The notes beneath the pieces are model-generated. The model saw nothing but the letters and a program-made list of their open reading frames with translations, did no database searches and was not told the origin of the DNA. From Omnitrophica WOR_2 bacterium RIFCSPHIGHO2_02_FULL_67_20 (GTDB lineage Bacteria > Omnitrophota > Gorgyraeia > Aquiviventales > Aquiviventaceae), in the NCBI GenBank assembly GCA_001805695.1, contig MHGT01000036.1, positions 4,146 through 42,985 of the forward strand: a stretch of 38,840 nt of DNA. The letters run 5' to 3'. Shown piece by piece: positions 1,761-28,812 of this stretch. The position numbers and the translations under genes were made by a program. How positions within the stretch are numbered: the first letter of the stretch is position 1; the number at the start of each line of letters is the position of its first letter.

Positions 1761-3032
1761 ATGCCCGCTGAGCGCGCCGTCCTCGTCACCGTCCAGCTGG
1801 ACCCGCGCTTCTCGAAAGGGCGCGGGCCATTCTGGCCGCTCGCCGACGAAGCGGACGAGCTGAAGGAGCTTGCGCGCTCCGCCGGATGCGACGTGGTGGC
1901 CGAGCTGAGCGTGCGGCGCCACCAGCCGATCGCCGGCACGTTCCTCGGCGGCGGCAAGCTCGACGAGGTGGCGGCGCTGGCCGCGGAGCGGCAGGGCCAG
2001 ACGGTCATCTTCAGCCAGGAGCTCTCGCCCGGCCAGCAGCGCAACATCGAGGAGCTGGTGGGCGCGAAGACGCTCGACCGCACCCAGCTCATCCTGGACA
2101 TCTTCGCCCAGCGCGCCCGCTCGCAGGAGGGCAAGGTGCAGGTGGAGCTGGCCCAGCTGCGCTACCTCCTGCCGCGCCTCGTGGGGAAGGGCATCATGCT
2201 CTCGCGTCTGGGCGGCGGCATCGGCACGCGCGGCCCGGGCGAGCAGAAGCTGGAGGTGGACCGCCGGCGCATCCGCATGCGCATCCAGCGCCTCGCGGGC
2301 GAGCTGGAACAGCTGGGCGCGCGGCGCTCGGCGATGCGCGCGCGCCGGCGCGAAACCGAGACCCCGGTCGTGGCGCTCGTCGGCTACACGAACGCGGGCA
2401 AGACCACCCTGCTCAACCGGCTCACGGGCTCGGCCGCGACGGCCAGCAATCAGCTCTTCACGACGCTCGACCCGCTCGCGCGGCGCGTGCGCCTGCCGAG
2501 CGGCGAGACGTTCCTCCTGACCGACACCGTGGGCTTTCTCCACCACCTGCCGCACCACCTGATCGAAGCCTTCAAGGCGACGCTCGAGGAGGCGCGCGAC
2601 GCGGACGTGCTCCTGCACGTCCTCGACGCCAGCCATCCGCTCGCGGCCGAGCACGCGCAGGCGGTCGAGGAGGTGCTCAAGGCGCTCGGCCTGACGGAGA
2701 AGCCGGTGGTGACGGCGCTGAACAAGCGCGACCAGGTCGAGGATGCGCAGCGCCTCACAGCCCTGGAGCGGGTGTACGCCCCGGCGGCCGCCATCTCCGC
2801 CAAGACCGGGGAGGGATTGGACCGCCTCGGCGAGCTGCTCACCGGCAGCCTGGCCTCGCTCCTCATCGAGCCGGTCCGGCTCCGGATCCCGGCCGAGCAT
2901 GCCGACCTTGTGGCCTCGGTCTACCAGCGCGGACAGGTGCTCCGGCGCCGGGAAGTTGACGGCACGATTGAGCTGCTCGCCAGGCTTCCGGCCAAGCTTC
3001 GCTCCTCGCTCGCCCCCTATCTTCTTGCTTGA
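1761..3032 (+). CDS. hflX: GTPase HflX
   Basis: HflX N-domain motif QLILDIFAQRARSQEGKVQVELAQLRYLLPRL and GTPase motifs GYTNAGKTTL, DTVGF, NKRD. A TTG at 1755 is an alternative start. Confidence 0.93.
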   Translation: MPAERAVLVTVQLDPRFSKGRGPFWPLADEADELKELARSAGCDVVAELSVRRHQPIAGTFLGGGKLDEVAALAAERQGQTVIFSQELSPGQQRNIEELVGAKTLDRTQLILDIFAQRARSQEGKVQVELAQLRYLLPRLVGKGIMLSRLGGGIGTRGPGEQKLEVDRRRIRMRIQRLAGELEQLGARRSAMRARRRETETPVVALVGYTNAGKTTLLNRLTGSAATASNQLFTTLDPLARRVRLPSGETFLLTDTVGFLHHLPHHLIEAFKATLEEARDADVLLHVLDASHPLAAEHAQAVEEVLKALGLTEKPVVTALNKRDQVEDAQRLTALERVYAPAAAISAKTGEGLDRLGELLTGSLASLLIEPVRLRIPAEHADLVASVYQRGQVLRRREVDGTIELLARLPAKLRSSLAPYLLA

Positions 3033-3057
3033 CAAGGCACCCCGCTTCCAGTAAACT
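3029..3057 (+). promoter_or_regulatory. Sigma70-type promoter of the hrcA-grpE-dnaK operon
   Basis: TTGACA (3029-3034), a 17-nt spacer, then TAAACT (3052-3057). It lies immediately upstream of CIRCE. Confidence 0.7.
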
Positions 3058-3062
3058 TCGAA

Positions 3063-3089
3063 TTAGCACTCATCAATATAGAGTGCTAA
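3063..3089. promoter_or_regulatory. CIRCE operator (HrcA binding site)
   Basis: Perfect consensus TTAGCACTC-N9-GAGTGCTAA, 14 nt upstream of the hrcA ATG. Confidence 0.95.
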
Positions 3090-3102
3090 CAGAGGTAGCG
3101 GC

Positions 3103-4152
3103 ATGAGCGTAACTGACTTTGAGCAAAGGAGAAAGGAAATCCTCGGGCTCATCATCGAGGCGTACGTATTGAGCGCCTCGCCGGTGGGCTCGGAGCTCGT
3201 GTCCAAGAAGCTCCGCTCAAGCCTGAGTTCAGCCACCATCCGCAACATCATGGTGGAGCTGGAAAAGTCCGGCTACCTGGAGCAGCCGCACACCTCCGCG
3301 GGGCGCGTGCCGACCGACCGGGGCTACCGCTTCTACGTGGACGCGGTGATGGATACGGCCCACCTGTCTCCGGACGAGCTGCGGCAGATTGAGGTACTCA
3401 TCCAGCCCCCGGAGCTTGATGTGGAACAGCTCCTCCAGCGCGCGAGCGGCGTCCTGGCCGGGCTGACCGAGCAGGCGGCCTTCGCCGTGTCGCCCACGGT
3501 GAAGCAGCGCACCGTGAAGCAGATTGAGTTGATGCCGCTCGGGGTGCGCAAAATCCTGTGCGTGCTGGTGGCCAACGAAGAGATGATCGCCTCGCACGTG
3601 GTCGAAATCGAAGAGCCCATGAGCCGCGACGAGGCGGCCGCGCTCGGCCGCTTCCTGAATACGGAGCTGGCCGGCCTCGCCTTCAGCGAACTGCTGAATT
3701 CGCTGGAGCGCCGGATGCTGGCCGAAAGCGACTCGTTCTACCACCTCGTGAAGCGGTCGCTCGGCATCCTCCAGCATGCGCTCTCGAGCGAGCCCAACGA
3801 CCGGCTGTATCTGGAGGGTGCCAGCTACGTCGTGGCCCAGCCGGAGTTCAGCCGCCACCCGCGCAAGGCGCATGAGCTCCTCAAGGGGCTCGATAACGAG
3901 CAGACGCTGCTGGAGCGCATCCGGCAGGACATCGCCCCCGAGGGGGTGCAGGTGCGCATCGGCCGCGAGGTGCAGCTGCCCGGGCTCGAGGAGTGCAGCT
4001 ACCTGACCGCGCCCTGCGCCATCGGCGAGGAGATCGTCGGCGGGCTCGGGGTGCTGGGGCCGAAGCGGATGTCGTACCGGCGCATGCGCGCGCTCGTCGA
4101 GGGCATGGCGCGCTGCGTGACGAACCTCCTGACCCAATGGGACACCCGATAA
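3103..4152 (+). CDS. hrcA: Heat-inducible transcription repressor HrcA
   Basis: N-terminal wHTH (ILGLIIEAYVLSASPVGSELVSKKL...SSATIRNIMVELEKSGYLEQPHTSAGRVPTDRGYRFYVD), ~349 aa, preceded by CIRCE and followed by grpE-dnaK. Confidence 0.95.
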   Translation: MSVTDFEQRRKEILGLIIEAYVLSASPVGSELVSKKLRSSLSSATIRNIMVELEKSGYLEQPHTSAGRVPTDRGYRFYVDAVMDTAHLSPDELRQIEVLIQPPELDVEQLLQRASGVLAGLTEQAAFAVSPTVKQRTVKQIELMPLGVRKILCVLVANEEMIASHVVEIEEPMSRDEAAALGRFLNTELAGLAFSELLNSLERRMLAESDSFYHLVKRSLGILQHALSSEPNDRLYLEGASYVVAQPEFSRHPRKAHELLKGLDNEQTLLERIRQDIAPEGVQVRIGREVQLPGLEECSYLTAPCAIGEEIVGGLGVLGPKRMSYRRMRALVEGMARCVTNLLTQWDTR

Positions 4153-4263
4153 GCACAGAAACACAGAAGGCGGAGAAGACGATGCACACCACAGAGACAC
4201 AGAACAGCAACATCACAACTGCTTCTCTCTGTGTTTCTGTGGATTTCTGTGTTTCTGTGGTGC
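4153..4263. repeat. Nested imperfect hairpin built from ~8-bp CACAGAAA-type units and their complement
   Basis: CACAGAAACACAGAA (4154-4168) is the exact reverse complement of TTCTGTGTTTCTGTG (4245-4259). The inner arm CCACAGAGACACAGAA pairs with TTCTCTCTGTGTTTCTGTGG. The element fills the hrcA-grpE spacer. Confidence 0.85.
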
Positions 4264-4270
4264 GAGTTGG

Positions 4271-4957
4271 ATGATGGGGCACAAGCACGAGGGCGACCGC
4301 GCCAAGCCGGTGCCCGAGCCGAAGCACCCCACCCACGGCGGCCTCGGCGACCCCGGCCCACAGGATGGGGGAGGGCCGGCCGGGGAGGCCGAAGGCCGAA
4401 GCACGCCGCGCGCAGGCAACACCGCTGAGTTGGAGCGGCTGACGCAGGAGGCGGCACAGGCCAAGGACCAGTACCTGCGGATGCTGGCCGACGTCGAGAA
4501 CACGAGGAAGCGGCTGCAGCGGGAGAAGGAGGAGTTTGCCCGGTTCGCGGCCGAGACGGTGGTGCGCGCCCTGCTGCCCATCCTGGACAGCCTGGACCAG
4601 GCGCTCGTCGCGGTGGACCGGAAGAGCGACGCGGATGCGGTCGTGAAGGGCGTCCACCTCATCCACCGCCAGCTGCATGGCGTCCTGGAGAAGGAGGGGG
4701 TCAGGCGGATCCCCACCGTCGGCGAGCCGTTCGACCCGCACCGGCATGAGGCGGTGGCCCAGGTCGAAGCGGACGGTATGGCGGATGACACGATTGTGGA
4801 AGAGGTGCAGGCGGGCTATACGATGAGCGGGAAAATGATTCGGCCCGCGATAGTGAAGGTGGCGAAAGCAAAGGAAGAGCGTTCTGGGTTGGGGGTTGAG
4901 GGTTCGGGGCAAATGCCCAGAACCCCGAACCCCGAACCCCGAACCGAGTCGGATTAA
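4271..4957 (+). CDS. grpE: Nucleotide exchange factor GrpE (C-terminal ~25 aa are translated from a repeat element)
   Basis: LRMLADVENTRKRLQREKEE and the C-terminal GYTMSGKMIRPAIVKV are typical GrpE. The ORF then reads through the 4881-4945 heptad hairpin. Confidence 0.93.
   Translation: MMGHKHEGDRAKPVPEPKHPTHGGLGDPGPQDGGGPAGEAEGRSTPRAGNTAELERLTQEAAQAKDQYLRMLADVENTRKRLQREKEEFARFAAETVVRALLPILDSLDQALVAVDRKSDADAVVKGVHLIHRQLHGVLEKEGVRRIPTVGEPFDPHRHEAVAQVEADGMADDTIVEEVQAGYTMSGKMIRPAIVKVAKAKEERSGLGVEGSGQMPRTPNPEPRTESD
4881..4945. repeat. Heptad-array hairpin: four GTTNNGG units, an AAAT loop, four CCCNGAA units
   Basis: GTTCTGG GTTGGGG GTTGAGG GTTCGGG GC-AAAT-G CCCAGAA CCCCGAA CCCCGAA CCCCGAA. 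The arms are ~25/30 complementary. Confidence 0.85.
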
Positions 4958-4969
4958 GGAGGTCTCTCA

Positions 4970-6850
4970 ATGGCAAAGGTGATCGGCATCGACTTGGGAA
5001 CATCGAACTCCGCCTGCGCCGTGATGGAGCAGGGCCGGCCGGCGATCATTCCGTCGGCGGAAGGCACGAGCGTAGGCGGCAAAGCGTTTCCGTCCTACGT
5101 GGCATTCACGAAGGACGGGCAGCTGCTGGTCGGGGAGCCGGCCCGCCGCCAGGCCGCGACCAACCCGGAGGGGACGGTGCAGGCGGCCAAGCGGAAGATG
5201 GGGACCGACCACGTGTACCGCATCTACGGCAAGGAGTACACGCCGCAGCAGATTTCCGCCTTCATCCTGCAGAAGGTGAAGCGGGACGCGGAGGCCCACC
5301 TCGGCGAGCCGGTGAAGGAAGTCGTCATCACCGTGCCCGCCTACTTCAACGACAACCAGCGCCAGGCGACCAAGGACGCGGGCGCGATCGCGGGCCTGGA
5401 GGTGCTGCGGATCGTGAACGAGCCGACCGCCGCGTGCCTCGCCTACGGCCTCGACAAGGCGGCGAAGGAGCAGAAGATCCTCGTCTTCGACCTGGGCGGC
5501 GGCACGCTCGATGTGACCATCATGGACATGGCCCAGGGGGTCTTCGAGGTCAAGGCGACGAGCGGCGATACCCAACTGGGCGGCACCGATATGGACCTCT
5601 CACTCGTGGACTACATCGCCTCCGAGTTCAAGAAGGAGACGGGGATCGACGCGCGCAACGACCGGGTGGCGGCCCAGCGCATCCGCGAGGCGGCGGAGAA
5701 GGCGAAGATCGAGCTCTCGAACGTCATCGAGACCGACCTGAACTTGCCCTTCATCACCGCGGATGCCTCCGGGCCGAAGCACCTCACCATGACGCTGACG
5801 CGCGCGACGCTCGAGCGGTTGATCGAACCCATCATCAGCCGCTGCCGCGGCCCGATCGAACGGGCGCTGGGCGACGCGAAGCTCAAGCCCTCGGACATCG
5901 ACCGCATCATCCTCGTCGGCGGCCCCACCCGCATGCCCATCGTTCAGCGGTTCGTCGAGGAGGCGGTCGGCAAGAAGGTGGAGCGGGGGGTGGACCCGAT
6001 GGAGTGCGTCGCGATGGGCGCCGCCGTCCAGGCGGGGATCATGAAGGGCGAAGTGAAGGACGTCCTCCTGCTCGACGTGACGCCGCTCTCGATGGGCATC
6101 GAGACGCTGGGCGGCGTGTTCACCAAGCTCATCGAGCGCAACACGACGGTGCCCACCCGCAAGAGCCAGGTCTTCTCGACGGCGGACGACAACCAGTCGG
6201 CGGTGACGATCCGGGTGCTCCAGGGCGAGCGGCCGATGGCCTCCGACAACGTGGAGCTGGGCCGGTTCGACCTGATCGGCATCCCGCCGGCACCCCGCGG
6301 CGTGCCGCAGGTCGAGGTGGCGTTCGACATCGACGCGAACGGCATCGTGCACGTCTCGGCCAAGGACCTCGGGACCGGCAAGGAGCAGTCGATCAAGATC
6401 ACCGCGCCCGAGAAGCTCTCGAAGGACGAGATCGAGAAGATGGTCAAGCAAGCGGAGCAGTTCGCCGAGGCGGATAAAAGCCGCAAGGAGCTGGCCGAGG
6501 CGAAGAACCAGGCGGACCAGCTCGTCTACGCGACCGAGAAGAGCCTGAAGGAGCTGGGCGACAAGGCGGGCCAGTCGGAGCGCCTGGCGATCGAGCAGGC
6601 AAGCCGCGACCTCAAGGACGCCCTCAAGTCGGACGACCTGGCGAAGATCAAGCGGGCGACCGAATCGCTCATGCAGGTTTCGCACAAGCTGGCGGAGGAA
6701 GTGTATAAGAAGGGGCAGGGGGCAAAGGGCGGGGGGCAGGGGGCGGGGGAACGCGGACCGCAGGCCCCGGAAGAGCCCGCCCAGCAGGCCGGCGGGAAGG
6801 ACGATAAGGTCGTGGACGCGGAGTTCAAGGTTAAGGATGAGGGGAAGTGA
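4970..6850 (+). CDS. dnaK: Molecular chaperone DnaK (Hsp70)
   Basis: [19 protein letters not shown] and VGGPTRMP motifs over the full length. An AAGGAGG RBS lies at 4956-4962. Confidence 0.98.
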
Positions 6851-6885
6851 TTCCCGTGGCGTCTGACACCGGTGGGAGGGGGTAC

Positions 6886-7314
6886 ATGAACCTGAAGGCA
6901 TGGGCGAAGGCGACGCTCGGGGCGTTCGTCGCGATCTTTGCGGCGGAGTTTCTCATCCACCACGTCTGGCTGGGCGGGTTCTACAAGGCGCACGCGGTCT
7001 GGTGGCGCCCCGCGGCGCAGATGGGGCCGATGATGCCGCTGATGTTCGCGGCTCAGCTCGTGCTAGCGGCACTCCTCACCGTTGTGTACGCCAAGGGCTA
7101 TGAGCCGGGCAAGGGCGGGGCGGGGCAGGGGTTCCGTTTCGGCGTCCTCATCGGGCTCCTGTTGATGCTCCCCTGCAGCCTGATGAACGCCGTCATCTAC
7201 CCGTACCCGATGTCGCTCATCGTCAACTGGCTCGTCGGCGGCCTGGCCGAGATTGCGCTTGCCGGCGCGGTGATTGGGGCGCTGTATAAGCCTGGGAAGC
7301 AACAGGGAGGTTAG
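6886..7314 (+). CDS. Small multi-pass membrane protein of unknown function (possibly DUF1761-like)
   Basis: Four hydrophobic segments. The ATG at 6886 is preceded by GGGAGGGGG. The gene lies between dnaK and dnaJ. The family assignment is from memory only. Confidence 0.55.
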   Translation: MNLKAWAKATLGAFVAIFAAEFLIHHVWLGGFYKAHAVWWRPAAQMGPMMPLMFAAQLVLAALLTVVYAKGYEPGKGGAGQGFRFGVLIGLLLMLPCSLMNAVIYPYPMSLIVNWLVGGLAEIALAGAVIGALYKPGKQQGG

Positions 7315-7425
7315 CGCGTTGGCGGGTTTGCGGGTTTGCGCGTTCGAGATCGACACCATGAGGACATCTCGGGAGAAAGCAGCCGGCGTATCCGCTTAGT
7401 TCCGGCAAGACTGATTTGAAACGTG

Positions 7426-8556
7426 ATGCCGACGACGAAACGCGACTACTACGAAATCCTCGGGGTGCAGAAGAGCGCCACGCTTGACGAGATCAAGCGG
7501 GCGTACCGCCAGCTGGCGCTGAAGCACCACCCGGACCGGGTGGGGGCTGAGCACAAGAAAGAGGCCGAGGAGAAGTTCAAGGAAATCTCCGAGGCCTACG
7601 CCGTCCTCTCCGATGCGCAGAAGCGCTCGGTCTATGACCAATACGGCCACACGCCAGGTTTTGACCAGCGCTACTCGACCGAGGACATCTTCCGCAACGC
7701 CGACTTCTCGAGCATCTTCGAGGACCTCGGCCTGGGCGGCTCGTTCTTCGAGGGCCTCTTTGGGGGCGGCGCTCTGGGGGCGGGGCGCGGCGCTCGCGGC
7801 TCGGACCTCGAGATGGAGCTGCCGCTCACGTTCGAGGAGGCCGCCCGCGGGACGACGAAGATGGTCACCGTGCCGCGGCGCGAGCTCTGCCACGAGTGCC
7901 GCGGCGAAGGCGGCGAGCGCGCGGCCTGCTCGACCTGCCGCGGGACCGGGCAGATCCGCCAGTCGGCCGGGTTCATGGTCATCGCGCGCACGTGCAACCG
8001 GTGCGGTGGGCAGGGCGGCACGGTCAAGAAAGCCTGCCCGGCCTGCCGGGGGAGCGGCCGCGTGGCGGTCGAGCGCCGGATTGAGGTCCGGGTGCCGGCC
8101 GGTATCGAGTCGGGCATGCGCCTCCGGCTGGCCGGCGAAGGCGAGGCGGGCCCGCGGGCCCGCGGCGATCTCTACGTCCACCTGACCGTCAAACCGCACC
8201 CGCTGTTCCGGCGGGAGGGGCCGCACCTGATCCTCGAGTACCCGGCGAGTATCGCGCAGGCCGCGCTGGGCGCCGAGGTGGAGCTGCCCACGATGAACGG
8301 CCGGGTGTCGATGAAGATCCCGCCGGGGACGCAGAGCGGCACGGTGTTCCGGGTGCGGGGCAAGGGGCTGCCCGACGTGCAGGAGCGGGGGGGGACGGGC
8401 GATCTCCTCGTGCGGGTGAGCGTCGAGACGCCAACGAACCTGACCGGCGCCCAGCGCAAGGCGTTCGAGGAGCTCTTCCGCGCGCTGGGCGACGACGCGC
8501 ACCCCGCGCGGAGGTCGTTCTTGGCGAAACTCAAGGAGTTGATCAAGCAGCGTTGA
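7426..8556 (+). CDS. dnaJ: Co-chaperone DnaJ
   Basis: J-domain DYYEILGV...HPD, a G/F-rich linker, and four CxxCxGxG zinc motifs ([32 protein letters not shown]). Confidence 0.97.
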
Positions 8557-8656
8557 GCCGGTTTTGCCCGTTATGCCGGTTGGCCCGTTAGAGCCGGTTC
8601 GGTACCAACGGGCTCAACGGGCTCAACGGGCCCAACGGGCTCAACGGGCCAACGGA
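8551..8656. repeat. 9-bp-unit palindromic array, GCCCGTT/GCCGGTT family, copy 1 of 4
   Basis: gagccggtt ttgcccgtt atgccggtt ggcccgtta gagccggtt cggtacc aacgggc tcaacgggc tcaacgggc ccaacgggc tcaacgggc caacgg. The dnaJ stop codon (8554-8556) lies inside the first unit. Confidence 0.9.
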
Positions 8657-8659
8657 AAC

Positions 8660-8950
8660 ATGCCGACGTACGAATACCAGTGCGCGAAGTGCAAGAAGCG
8701 CCGCGAGGCGTCCCAGTCCATCACCGCCAAGCCGCTCGTCAAGTGCCCGAAGTGCGGCGGCCGGCTCAAGCGCCTCATGGGCCGCGGCTCGGGCTTCCTG
8801 TTCAAGGGGAGCGGGTTCTACATCACCGACTACCGGAGCAAGAGCTACCAGGACGCCAAGAAGAAGGACCAAGACGCGAAGAAGAAGGACCAACCTGCCT
8901 CCTCTTCCTCTGACGGCAAAAGCTCCTCGTCCACCGGTAGCAAAGCGTAG
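8660..8950 (+). CDS. FmdB-family putative regulatory zinc-ribbon protein
   Basis: MPTYEYQCAKC...KCPKCGG is the CxxC-N-CxxC signature of this family. The QRAQRAQRA N-terminal extension in the ORF track is a translation of the repeat. Confidence 0.85.
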   Translation: MPTYEYQCAKCKKRREASQSITAKPLVKCPKCGGRLKRLMGRGSGFLFKGSGFYITDYRSKSYQDAKKKDQDAKKKDQPASSSSDGKSSSSTGSKA

Positions 8951-9002
8951 TGTATGGGGCTACGCGGCCGCCGCGTATGCGGCGGTCATCCTTGTCGGCT
9001 CG

Positions 9003-13437: not shown

Positions 13438-13544
13438 TTCGTTAAGCCCGTTAAGCCCGTTGGGCCCGTTGGGCCCGTTGAGTCCGTTCGGACGGGCCGC
13501 CAACCGGCTCAACGGGCGCAACCGGCCTAACGGGCTCAACCGGG
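13438..13544. repeat. 9-bp-unit palindromic array, GCCCGTT family, copy 2 of 4
   Basis: gcccgttaa gcccgttaa?gcccgttgg gcccgttgg gcccgttga gtccgttcg gacgggccg ccaaccggc tcaacgggc gcaaccggc ctaacgggc tcaaccggg. It ends 1 nt before the next ATG (13546). Confidence 0.9.
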
Positions 13545-15028: not shown

Positions 15029-15099
15029 ATTTCGGATTTCGGATTTGGGATTTCGGATCCAAAGGTTTCGTCCGCAATCCGTAATCCGCAATCCGAAAT
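15029..15099. repeat. Heptad-array hairpin: 4 x ATTTCGG-type units, a loop, 4 x CCGNAAT units
   Basis: ATTTCGG ATTTCGG ATTTGGG ATTTCGG (15029-15056), then CCGCAAT CCGTAAT CCGCAAT CCGAAAT (15072-15099). Confidence 0.88.
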
Positions 15100-15112: not shown

Positions 15113-16390
15113 ATGGTAATTGTCACCTCTCTCTGGCTCCTCGCCATGGTCTCCGGCCTCTGCTGGGCGCGCCGCTACACGGCGGCGCTGAGCGCCGTGA
15201 CCGCCCTGGCGTTCATCGCCACCGAGGCCGAGACGCTGCTCGCATGGACCGGTTGGCTCCAGCTGGCGGCGTTGGGTGCGACACCCTGGCTGCTGGCGGC
15301 CCAGCGCCTGCAGGATGCGCTGACCGTCAGGCGGCTGCATGATGAGGAGGCCGCGCGCCTCGCCAAGCTCTCCGAGGCGGCCCGGTCGCTCCTCTCGCTG
15401 CAGCGCTCGACCGACCAGATGGAGGCGCAGATCAGCCAGATCACCGATCTCTACCACGTGACGAAGGAGACCTCGCGGGCGATGCACGTGAAGGAGCTCT
15501 TCGCCGCGTCGCTGGATATCGCGCCCCGCCTGCTCAGCGCCAGCGGCCTGCGCCTCATCGACCTCTCCGGCGAAGAGCCCCGCGTCCTGCGGGCCGCGCG
15601 CGGGGCGGACGGGCGCATGCGGGAGGAACAGGCCGACGGGCCGCTCGATGCGGAGCGCGCCATCATCCAGGAGGCGCTGGCGTCGGCCCCCCAGGCGGCG
15701 GGCGGGCGGACGGGGCCATCGGGCCTGGCCTGGGCGCCGCTGTGGCGTGAACAACACGCGGTGGGAGTGCTGGTCGCCGACGGGCTGCCGGATGACCAAA
15801 TCCGGACGCTGACGATCGTCGCGAACCAGCTTTCGCTCCAGCTGGCCCGCGTCACGCTCTACCAGCGGGTGGAGTCGCTCGCCGTCACGGATGCGCTCAC
15901 CGGCCTCTTCGTGCGCCGGCACTTCATGGAGCGCTCCAGGGAGGAGCTGACGCGCTCCAAGCGCCACGGCCTGGCCTGCTCGCTGCTCATGGTCGACCTC
16001 GACCACTTCAAGCAGAAGAACGACACGTACGGCCACCTGGTCGGCGACGTCGTCCTCCGCGACGTGGCGCGGCTGCTGGCGCACAACCTCCGCGAGGTGG
16101 ACCTCATCGCCCGCTACGGCGGCGAAGAACTCGTGCTCATGCTCATCGAAACCGGGCCGGCGCAGGCGCTGCCGATCGCCCAGCGGCTCGCTCAGCTCGT
16201 CGCGGTGCACCCGATCCGCGCCTACGATGAGCTCCTGACGCAGACGGTCAGCATGGGGTTGGCCGCCTTCCCGGACCACGGCGACACGCTGGAAACGCTG
16301 ATTGAGCGGGCGGACCAGGCGCTGTACGCGGCGAAGCAGGCGGGGAGGAATCGTGTCGTTGTGTACTCGGAAAAAACGCAGGGGGTGTAG
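15113..16390 (+). CDS. Membrane-anchored GGDEF diguanylate cyclase (GGEEL variant with an RxxD I-site)
   Basis: DLDHFKQKNDTYGHLVGD, REVDLIARYGGEEL (RxxD five residues before the GGEEL motif), and an N-terminal hydrophobic region. Confidence 0.9.
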   Translation: MVIVTSLWLLAMVSGLCWARRYTAALSAVTALAFIATEAETLLAWTGWLQLAALGATPWLLAAQRLQDALTVRRLHDEEAARLAKLSEAARSLLSLQRSTDQMEAQISQITDLYHVTKETSRAMHVKELFAASLDIAPRLLSASGLRLIDLSGEEPRVLRAARGADGRMREEQADGPLDAERAIIQEALASAPQAAGGRTGPSGLAWAPLWREQHAVGVLVADGLPDDQIRTLTIVANQLSLQLARVTLYQRVESLAVTDALTGLFVRRHFMERSREELTRSKRHGLACSLLMVDLDHFKQKNDTYGHLVGDVVLRDVARLLAHNLREVDLIARYGGEELVLMLIETGPAQALPIAQRLAQLVAVHPIRAYDELLTQTVSMGLAAFPDHGDTLETLIERADQALYAAKQAGRNRVVVYSEKTQGV

Positions 16391-16455
16391 CGTGTACCGT
16401 TTACCGTGTACCGTCAAGAGCGATGAATCAGGTTTTCACGGTACACCGTACACGG
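16391..16455. repeat. Heptad-array hairpin: GTGTACC-type units and their complement GGTACAC
   Basis: GTGTACC GTTTACC GTGTACC GT (16392-16414), a loop, then AC GGTACAC CGTACAC GG (16438-16455). It runs directly into the 112-nt element. Confidence 0.8.
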
Positions 16456-16568
16456 TTCACCCCGTACCACGGTGGACGCCCCGCCCGTCAGGGCGGGGAG
16501 GAATGGCGTGGTCGTCCCGAAGGGTCGTTCCAGAGGCCACGGCCGTTAGGCCGTGGTACGGGGTTCAC
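16455..16568 (+). repeat. Conserved ~112-nt structured palindromic element, copy A (possible ncRNA, cis-regulatory RNA or MITE)
   Basis: About 80% identical by eye to 22887-22997. Terminal complement ACCCCGTACCACGG / CCGTGGTACGGGGT. Hairpins CCCCGCCC-GTCA-GGGCGGGG and CCACGGCC-GTTA-GGCCGTGG. Confidence 0.7.
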
Positions 16569-17548: not shown

Positions 17549-17634
17549 GTCCGTTATGCCGGTTGCGCCCGTTGAGCCGGTTGGCAGTCCGTGCGAACGG
17601 GCTCAACGGGCCTAACGGGCTCAACGGGCCAACG
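17541..17634. repeat. 9-bp-unit palindromic array, GCCCGTT family, copy 3 of 4
   Basis: accgttagg tccgttatg ccggttgcg cccgttgag ccggttgg cagtccgtgcg aacgggc tcaacgggc ctaacgggc tcaacgggc caacgag. The ROK stop codon (17546-17548) lies in the first unit. Confidence 0.9.
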
Positions 17635-28711: not shown

Positions 28712-28806
28712 GCGTTGGGCCCGTTGTGCCGGTTGAGCCTGTTGGAAGGTTGAATACCCTCTCACCAAACGGGCCTAACGGACAAAACCGGCCTAACGGG
28801 TCAAAC
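28712..28806. repeat. 9-bp-unit palindromic array, GCCCGTT family, copy 4 of 4 (more degenerate)
   Basis: gcgttgg gcccgttgt gccggttga gcctgttgg ... caaacgggc ctaacggac aaaaccggc ctaacgggt. Confidence 0.8.
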
Positions 28807-28812
28807 CCGCAG

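Follow-up and report, generated by a model that had tools for sequence, protein, structure and literature searches.

An in-frame heptad-periodic palindromic repeat at the grpE-dnaK junction of a Candidatus Omnitrophota genome

A predicted stem-loop inside the grpE reading frame

We analysed a stretch of 38,840 nucleotides (nt) from contig MHGT01000036.1 of Omnitrophica WOR_2 bacterium RIFCSPHIGHO2_02_FULL_67_20 (hereafter the window, from whose first letter positions are counted) and focused on the junction between the genes grpE and dnaK. The grpE open reading frame (ORF; 4271-4957) encodes 228 amino acids and spans the whole of the element studied here, an imperfect heptad palindrome at 4881-4944 with 30 nt on each side, which reads roughly as (GTTCGGG)4 and then (CCCCGAA)4. 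Its G-rich arm (4881-4910) is GTTCTGG GTTGGGG GTTGAGG GTTCGGGG, with four G-tracts of at least three residues. Its C-rich arm (4915-4944) is GCCCAGAA followed by (CCCCGAA)x3 C, with CCCAGAA coming first and the 3' end after GCCCAGAA reading in full CCCCGAA CCCCGAA CCCCGAAC. The C-arm makes 25 pairs with the G-arm, and the loop of the predicted stem-loop is AAAU (4911-4914), which is variable among orthologues. The grpE stop codon TAA (4955-4957) overlaps the Shine-Dalgarno sequence AAGGAGG of dnaK (4956-4962), so that the two form a module at 4955-4962, and the dnaK ORF of 626 amino acids begins with ATG at 4970 (4970-6850). Between the end of the element and this stop/Shine-Dalgarno module there are 10 nt, as the preliminary description of the locus had stated for the distance to the dnaK ribosome-binding site. 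All these features lie on the plus strand.

The arms were recovered by an inverted-repeat search of the window (31 nt each, 84% complementary), and 7-nt arrays were detected in both of them by Tandem Repeats Finder (TRF). The RNA of 4870-4975 had a predicted minimum free energy of -51.2 kcal/mol (z = -3.9), and none of 200 shuffled sequences was as stable. The arms, the arrays and the folding energy thus all agree with the hairpin that had been described at this junction. A scan of 4100-5100 returned neither a terminator with a T-run nor a promoter-like site; the sequence that comes after the stem, CGAGTCGGATTAAGGAGG, has no T-run, unlike that of an intrinsic terminator. In the Rfam scan of 3000-9000 no family was matched, apart from a sub-threshold microRNA match on another hairpin.

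At the protein level, the match to the Pfam GrpE domain extends from residue 50 to residue 199 of 228 (nt 4418-4867), where the profile also ends, and the tail that follows the VKV motif corresponds to nt 4862-4954. Residues 204-228 are the translation of the element and of three more codons, by which GrpE gains about 25 low-complexity residues (RSGLGVEGSGQMPRTPNPEPRT); the G-arm is read in the grpE frame as (R)SGLGVEGSG and the C-arm as PRTPNPEPRT. The earlier proposal that the additional GrpE residues are simply a translated repeat was therefore correct. The canonical G/C heptad units are free of stop codons in all three frames, and so the grpE ORF reads straight through them. The grpE copy itself has a TGA in one of the three frames, due to its GTTGAGG variant, and this is not the frame of grpE. 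With units of 7 nt, each frame gives a cyclic permutation of one 7-residue peptide.

Pairing, not peptide sequence, is under constraint

To characterise the element in relatives, we compared orthologous DNA from eight copies with the hairpin and one without it; the identity values below cover seven copies, including that of the genome to which the window belongs (G000, a metagenome-assembled genome (MAG) of Omnitrophota with 845 kb, 66% GC and 73% completeness, whose GrpE is closest to Candidatus Omnitrophota). The mean pairwise identity was 0.83 for the G-arm and 0.85 for the C-arm, but 0.49 for the loop, 0.60 for the 18 nt upstream and 0.69 for the 13-nt spacer. Within the copies of the GTTC type, the identity of the arms rose to 0.91-0.93. 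Between G000 and P0008/P0018, the hairpin was 89-92% identical, compared with 42-43% for the third codon positions of the GrpE core. In two orthologues (P0004 and P0012) the units have the form GCTC.../...GAGC, and this involves four double changes from U-A to C-G which retain the pairing and replace five residues (G by R, V by A, T by A, N by S and T by A). Across the seven orthologues 93% of the alignment cells were paired, and double changes occurred in 8 cells, compared with 2.5 in shuffled data (none of 500 shuffles reached the observed value), a modest count given that P0004 and P0012 may share one event. The spacer to GGAGG was constant at 13 nt in five of the seven orthologues. Since the arms are conserved, the loop and the synonymous sites are not, and the compensatory pairs alter the peptide, it is the paired nucleic acid that has been kept and not a protein tail. 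A C-terminal extension of GrpE conserved as protein would show synonymous variation, and the relatives show instead conserved arm nucleotides and pair changes that alter the peptide; on this point, too, the preliminary description was borne out.

A tail after VKV was universal among 113 homologues, with a median of 22 residues and a range of 6-71, yet the tails were unrelated, and GrpE homology ended at query residues ~200-205 in 29 of the 31 related genomes. An extension as such is therefore normal, contrary to what had been supposed. The tail peptide of the window matched repeat copies in G000, G003, G004 and G016 rather than GrpE tails, and the tails of several relatives are built from other heptad arrays. 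The same hairpin, with the tail peptide RSGLGVEGSGQ..PRTPNPEPRT, was carried by 18 of the 120 best GrpE homologues. At the grpE-dnaK junction itself, the hairpins of G018 and G014 are made of other units, and one-armed arrays were found in G009 and in G017, the latter with a C-arm only. In nine of the 13 species-level relatives with a readable junction there was no structure at this position (z about 0). The hairpin is absent from most relatives and thus is not a fixed part of the operon; the overlap of stop codon and Shine-Dalgarno sequence was found also in relatives without it.

Very close pairs of homologues were discordant for the tail (P0012/P0038, P0007/P0010 and P0003/P0005), which implies its frequent loss or replacement. 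Whole GrpE tails differed between close relatives, which therefore offer no exact empty site for comparison at grpE. Individual orthologues had peculiarities of their own: P0019 resembles a partial deletion, P0015 has five C-units, and in P0006 (locus L033) a second GC-rich hairpin, CCCGGCCCGACCCGGCGTGCCGGGACGGGCG, is nested in the C-arm, with a longer GrpE tail and the frame intact. P0002 and P0011 have an identical tail, AKKPATSEQQDTTAKS, on cores that are not sisters on a weakly resolved tree, which hints that tail modules may be exchanged between lineages. We also noticed that contigs of related MAGs, including locus L016 (G016), stop inside heptad arrays at the grpE tail; such repeats break assemblies, and the copy counts given below are consequently underestimates.

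A dispersed repeat family in spacers and in genes

In a catalogue of paired TRF arrays in G000, in which the flanks were judged by local frame analysis, at least 86 hairpins shared the architecture of the grpE copy: a 5' arm of about three to six tandem units of 7-9 nt and a 3' arm of their reverse complements, separated by a short loop. They comprise about 40 unit types, with about 4.3 units per arm. The junction hairpin is thus real, as had been described, but it is not unique to this site. Between co-directional genes we found 76 of the 86, and in 61 of these 76 the start of the hairpin falls between -30 and +10 nt relative to the stop codon that precedes it. About a quarter of the co-directional gaps of at least 50 nt in G000 contain a hairpin with a 7-9-nt period. 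We considered an enrichment between co-directional genes as a signal (92% versus a background of 83%, p = 0.04) and rejected it, as it mostly reflects genome organisation, with a background that already ranges over 83-89%.

The grpE copy belongs to the G/C heptad family, which had 54 pattern hits at some 30 or more loci in G000. Of 35 genomes from the same taxonomic family, 16 contained it (0-24 hits per genome), and it was nearly absent from 200 other Omnitrophota genomes. The copies have in common the unit, the order of the arms, with the G-arm first in all examined copies in which both arms are visible, and the loop subfamilies, one with a short loop (CAATTG/CAAATG/CAGTTA) and one with a loop of 11 nt. 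The element is therefore a member of a repeat family that has expanded within a single taxonomic family of Candidatus Omnitrophota and that resembles repetitive extragenic palindromic (REP) sequences in spacers and Rickettsia palindromic elements (RPEs) in genes. In the 5' arm, GTTCAGG often stands opposite a clean CCCCGAA (for example at C36:473, C16:31302 and C27:29530 in G000), so that the sense strand has an A·C and the antisense strand a G·U at this position. An apparent dependence of this asymmetry on the direction of transcription, 13 of 14 in the TRF catalogue, was dropped as a candidate feature when the wider catalogue gave only 28:16 (p = 0.10).

Eight catalogued hairpins, the grpE copy and at least seven others, lie inside ORFs that read through them, five of the eight being of the G/C family or near variants of it. 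According to Pfam, the G/C copy of PheT comes after the N-terminal part and before the B3_4 domain, and that of a MiaB-like methylthiotransferase (C36:473-545 in G000) between UPF0004 and Radical_SAM. ValS (C1:5492-5563) has one G/C copy between the catalytic and the anticodon-binding domains and another at about residues 440-465, inside the tRNA-synt_1 catalytic-domain match, as well as one in-frame copy of another unit family. Further G/C copies are present in ORFs that we named by eye as PurL-like (C16:13739-13802) and GH57-like (C7:15659-15731), and other unit families are in frame in CarB-like (C10:12862-12933) and CarA-like (C10:16537-16619) ORFs, also named by eye. The PurL-like ORF has two look-alike peptide stretches in addition to its one catalogued copy. 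Each in-frame copy adds about 22-29 low-complexity residues, and the peptide of the G/C copies is of the type GSGLG..G..PRTPNPEPRT. As for the RPEs, by analogy and not by homology, copies are thus found in frame in unrelated housekeeping genes, to which they add a peptide.

The loop of PheT between ..LKLP and I.IEDR.GC (C33:16913-16988 in G000; loci L041-L045) is occupied by an in-frame hairpin whose unit differs by genus: GGTTCAG/AACCCCG in G000, GGGGCGA/CCCTCGC in G012, GAAGTCA in G001, TAGCGTA/CCGCGAG in G005 and CCGCACT in G010. That the unit differs between genera at fixed sites, in this loop and at grpE-dnaK, suggests either that permissive sites were colonised repeatedly or a turnover of units in place.

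Within the window, hairpins of the same architecture were found in the gap between hrcA and grpE (4154-4262, plus strand, unit CACAGAA/TTCTGTG), at the dnaJ stop codon, with which it begins (8551-8655, plus strand, 9-nt unit CGTTGAGCC/CAACGGGCT), and at 15029-15099 (plus strand, unit ATTTCGG/TCCGAAA) and 16385-16470 (unit GTGTACC), together with further 9-mer hairpins at 13440-13543, 17558-17634 and 28713-28807. Units such as CGTTGAGCC and CGTGTAA contain a stop triplet (TGA and TAA, respectively), and the stop codons of some upstream genes end within the first unit of the hairpin.

G000 also has a gene for a REP-associated tyrosine transposase (RAYT; C42:17166-17507; L030 1276-1872, minus strand), identified by NF047646 with 83.2 bits against a cut-off of 80. 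It is flanked on both sides by an identical heptad-periodic 29-mer palindrome, GGTACCAGGTACTCCAGGTACCTGGTACC, a third copy of which is located at C16:26182, beside a masked stretch. The link between RAYT and the heptad repeats is only architectural, and the G/C family differs from REP/REPIN sequences in that no cognate RAYT flanked by the same palindrome was found in this genome, which is 73% complete. Nor did 16 aligned copies show the target-site duplication, or our searches the terminal inverted repeats related to an insertion sequence (IS), that characterise miniature inverted-repeat transposable elements.

Interpretation and likeness to known systems

The preliminary description had noted that the G-arm fits the pattern G3+N1-7 x4, which we confirmed, and had considered it conceivable that a G-quadruplex (G4) alternating with the hairpin acts as a temperature- or cation-sensitive switch that tunes dnaK. 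The element does have at least four heptamer units with intact G3+ tracts. When G4 structures were allowed in ViennaRNA, the G-arm alone folded as a G4 (-11.6 versus -5.5 kcal/mol), and the four G-tracts were retained in six of the seven orthologues. Similar G-rich heptamer repeats of Xanthomonas and Nostoc form G4 structures in vitro (PMC4692102). The G-arm is transcribed before the C-arm, which makes a kinetic G4 conceivable, and co-transcriptional G4 folding is missed by the energy models. The full element, however, adopted the hairpin, at -47.3 kcal/mol, even with G4 structures allowed. The predicted pairing of the stem fell only from 0.79 to 0.64 over 20 to 85 C, and that of the Shine-Dalgarno sequence was 0.22-0.37 over the same range and 0.29-0.37 over 20 to 70 C. 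In contrast to an RNA thermometer of the ROSE or fourU type, the Shine-Dalgarno sequence lies 12 nt past the stem, which in the model is still present at 85 C. Conservation is equally strong in the two arms, one of the G-tracts is missing from P0012, the junctions of most relatives lack a hairpin, and where relatives of other genera do have one, its units (CAGACAT, AGAAGTTGGAA) are free of G-tracts. Among the 86 hairpins, 27 are capable of forming a G4, and the arms have 4.3 units in these and 4.4 in the others, so that the length of the arms is independent of this capacity. The element is, moreover, traversed by translation of grpE, and heat control is already supplied from elsewhere: a perfect CIRCE operator, TTAGCACTC-N9-GAGTGCTAA (3063-3089, plus strand, 0 mismatches, matched by 0 of 100 shuffles), is located 14 nt upstream of hrcA, so that canonical HrcA control of the operon is in place. 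We therefore regard such a switch as highly improbable.

A functional extension of GrpE under selection as protein, with the palindrome incidental to it, appears to us just as improbable. It would agree with the recurrence of RSGLGVEGSGQ..PRTPNPEPRT in 18 homologues and with the fact that several differences between orthologous G-arms are synonymous (tcg/tct, ggt/ggg, caa/cag). However, the variable positions are the unpaired ones, and at the other third positions of the GTTC-type copies, those of the GGG glycine codons among them, there is hardly any change, while elsewhere the synonymous sites are saturated. The GCTC/GAGC variants change five residues with pairing intact, the same peptide lies within unrelated proteins, most relatives have unrelated tails, and the Pfam domain ends before the tail. 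More deserving of consideration, though in our estimation still rather unlikely as the full account, is a co-opted cis-regulatory stem-loop, that is, a selected constitutive RNA structure in the last 75 nt of grpE which would set the ratio of GrpE to DnaK by slowing ribosomes, by stabilising 3' or 5' ends after processing, or as a landmark for RNase III/E. The conservation of both arms against core third positions that are near saturation, the free loop with a stem kept by compensatory pairs, the constant spacer to GGAGG and the occurrence of this particular G-arm as a hairpin only at grpE-dnaK in metagenome contigs speak for it. Against it stand the restriction of the hairpin to 18 GrpE homologues among the closest 120, the discordant close pairs, the structureless junctions of nine of the 13 species-level relatives and the C-arm that is alone in G017; hairpin-templated repair and homogenisation of the arrays could also keep the pairing without selection.

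The explanation that we prefer, and consider fairly probable, is that grpE carries one copy of a REP/RPE-like palindromic repeat with heptad periodicity, possibly co-opted as a constitutive stem-loop. Several observations weigh against it. The idiosyncratic G-arm CTGGGTTGGGGGTTGAGGG occurs 20 times in JGI metagenome contigs and as a G/C hairpin once, at grpE-dnaK. The grpE copy looks old and locus-specific, and its conservation, far above that of neighbouring synonymous sites, would fit a selected function better than junk. The hairpin is patchy on the GrpE tree, where at least five changes are forced and many losses or replacements are required; the tree came from a quick search and is weakly resolved (57 of 110 forks open), and from it we took only the minimum of 5 changes and the discordance of the close pairs. 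Regarding mobility, neither target-site duplications nor direct repeats were found at the edges of 16 aligned copies, and our searches identified no terminal inverted repeats beyond the arms, no related IS and no cognate transposase. RAYT was examined as a mobiliser and rejected, its flanking palindrome having 3 copies and not being a G/C heptad (in a genome that is 73% complete).

As a dispersed repeat, the element would follow the plan of its family, in which roughly (GGGGTTC)4 as the G-arm and (GAACCCC)4 as the C-arm enclose a short loop. It would lie in the part of grpE that encodes the unstructured C-terminal tail, ahead of the conserved module of stop codon and Shine-Dalgarno sequence, and the extra GrpE residues would be a by-product of read-through. 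In the mRNA it would form a very stable, temperature-insensitive stem-loop, which is presumably unwound by the ribosomes that finish grpE and which would form whenever grpE is not translated across the element. Terminating ribosomes would be released at the stop codon that overlaps the Shine-Dalgarno sequence of dnaK. Between the grpE and dnaK parts of the transcript, the stem-loop could function like a REP sequence as a stability barrier, or else mark a site for processing, and we would expect the dnaK ribosome-binding site not to be sequestered and no switching between G4 and hairpin to take place.

Only tentatively do we propose, in addition, that the grpE stem-loop has been domesticated to set the output of GrpE and DnaK, as one of a class of hairpins that persist at fixed sites while their units turn over. 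Domestication may be read from the conserved arms, the free loop and the compensatory pairs across genus-level divergence. The turnover of units may proceed by homogenisation of the arrays and hairpin-templated copying, as judged from the change of unit between genera at one and the same site, both at grpE-dnaK and in the PheT loop. If this were true, it would constitute a self-maintaining class of repeats without need of a transposase. For annotation, tails or inserts of the type GSGLG...PRTPNPEPRT in Omnitrophota proteins should be taken as translated repeats and not as domains, and a G4 motif that lies beside its own complement should not be taken for a switch. It is also of interest that in such a small, streamlined genome about a quarter of the usable intergenic spacers hold heptad-, octad- or nonamer-periodic hairpins, which are tolerated even in essential genes. 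The grpE copy is a clean case of pairing conserved over coding, and makes a tractable system for asking how REP/RPE-like elements become regulatory parts of operons.

Among the known repeats, the STRR heptanucleotide repeats of heterocystous cyanobacteria (Calothrix PCC 7601) are, in the account given of them in PMC4692102, dispersed tandem heptad arrays with several unit types per genome. The repeats described here likewise form tandem heptanucleotide arrays that are scattered over one genome and belong to several unit types. STRRs were described as direct arrays, and palindromic pairing and in-frame copies are not among their defining features. The RPEs have many in-frame copies in unrelated housekeeping genes, where a conserved peptide is tolerated, and occur also in non-coding DNA (PMC10969869). 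The in-frame palindromes in PheT, ValS, PurL, MiaB-like and GrpE proteins are similar in this respect. RPEs, however, are about 100-150 bp long, are not tandem heptads, are restricted to Rickettsia and have no sequence relationship to the present repeats.

The REP/BIME/REPIN sequences of Enterobacteria and Pseudomonas are comparable as abundant imperfect palindromes just past stop codons between co-directional genes, with a similar density (about 1 per 8-10 kb), and a RAYT gene is present in G000. The repeats described here differ in that their arms are longer, about 30 nt, and consist of tandem units of 7-9 nt, in that there are many unit families, and in that copies of the G/C family are common inside ORFs. 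In E. coli, REP sequences stabilise the 3' ends of mRNA and have effects on the translation of the upstream gene.

The G-rich heptamers described by Rehm et al. (2015, PLoS One) are GGGAATC in Xanthomonas and GGGGA(C/T)T in Nostoc (PMC4692102). In Xanthomonas, 70-75 convergent pairs of a G-array followed by a C-array are capable of forming stem-loops; the repeats are located mostly between aligned ORFs near stop codons, are transcribed and vary in length among relatives, and a competition between G4 and hairpin was raised by these authors (PMC4692102). Our repeats share with them the G-rich 7-nt units and the preference for about four units. They differ in the sequence of the unit and in the phylum, in having in-frame copies within genes, and in that the G/C family is here one of about 40 unit types, most of which are not G-rich. 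The preference for four units is independent of G4 capacity here, contrary to its interpretation for Xanthomonas (PMC4692102). What is new in the present work is the RPE-like behaviour of in-frame copies, the comparison of grpE orthologues, and the tests for G4 formation and for a thermosensor.

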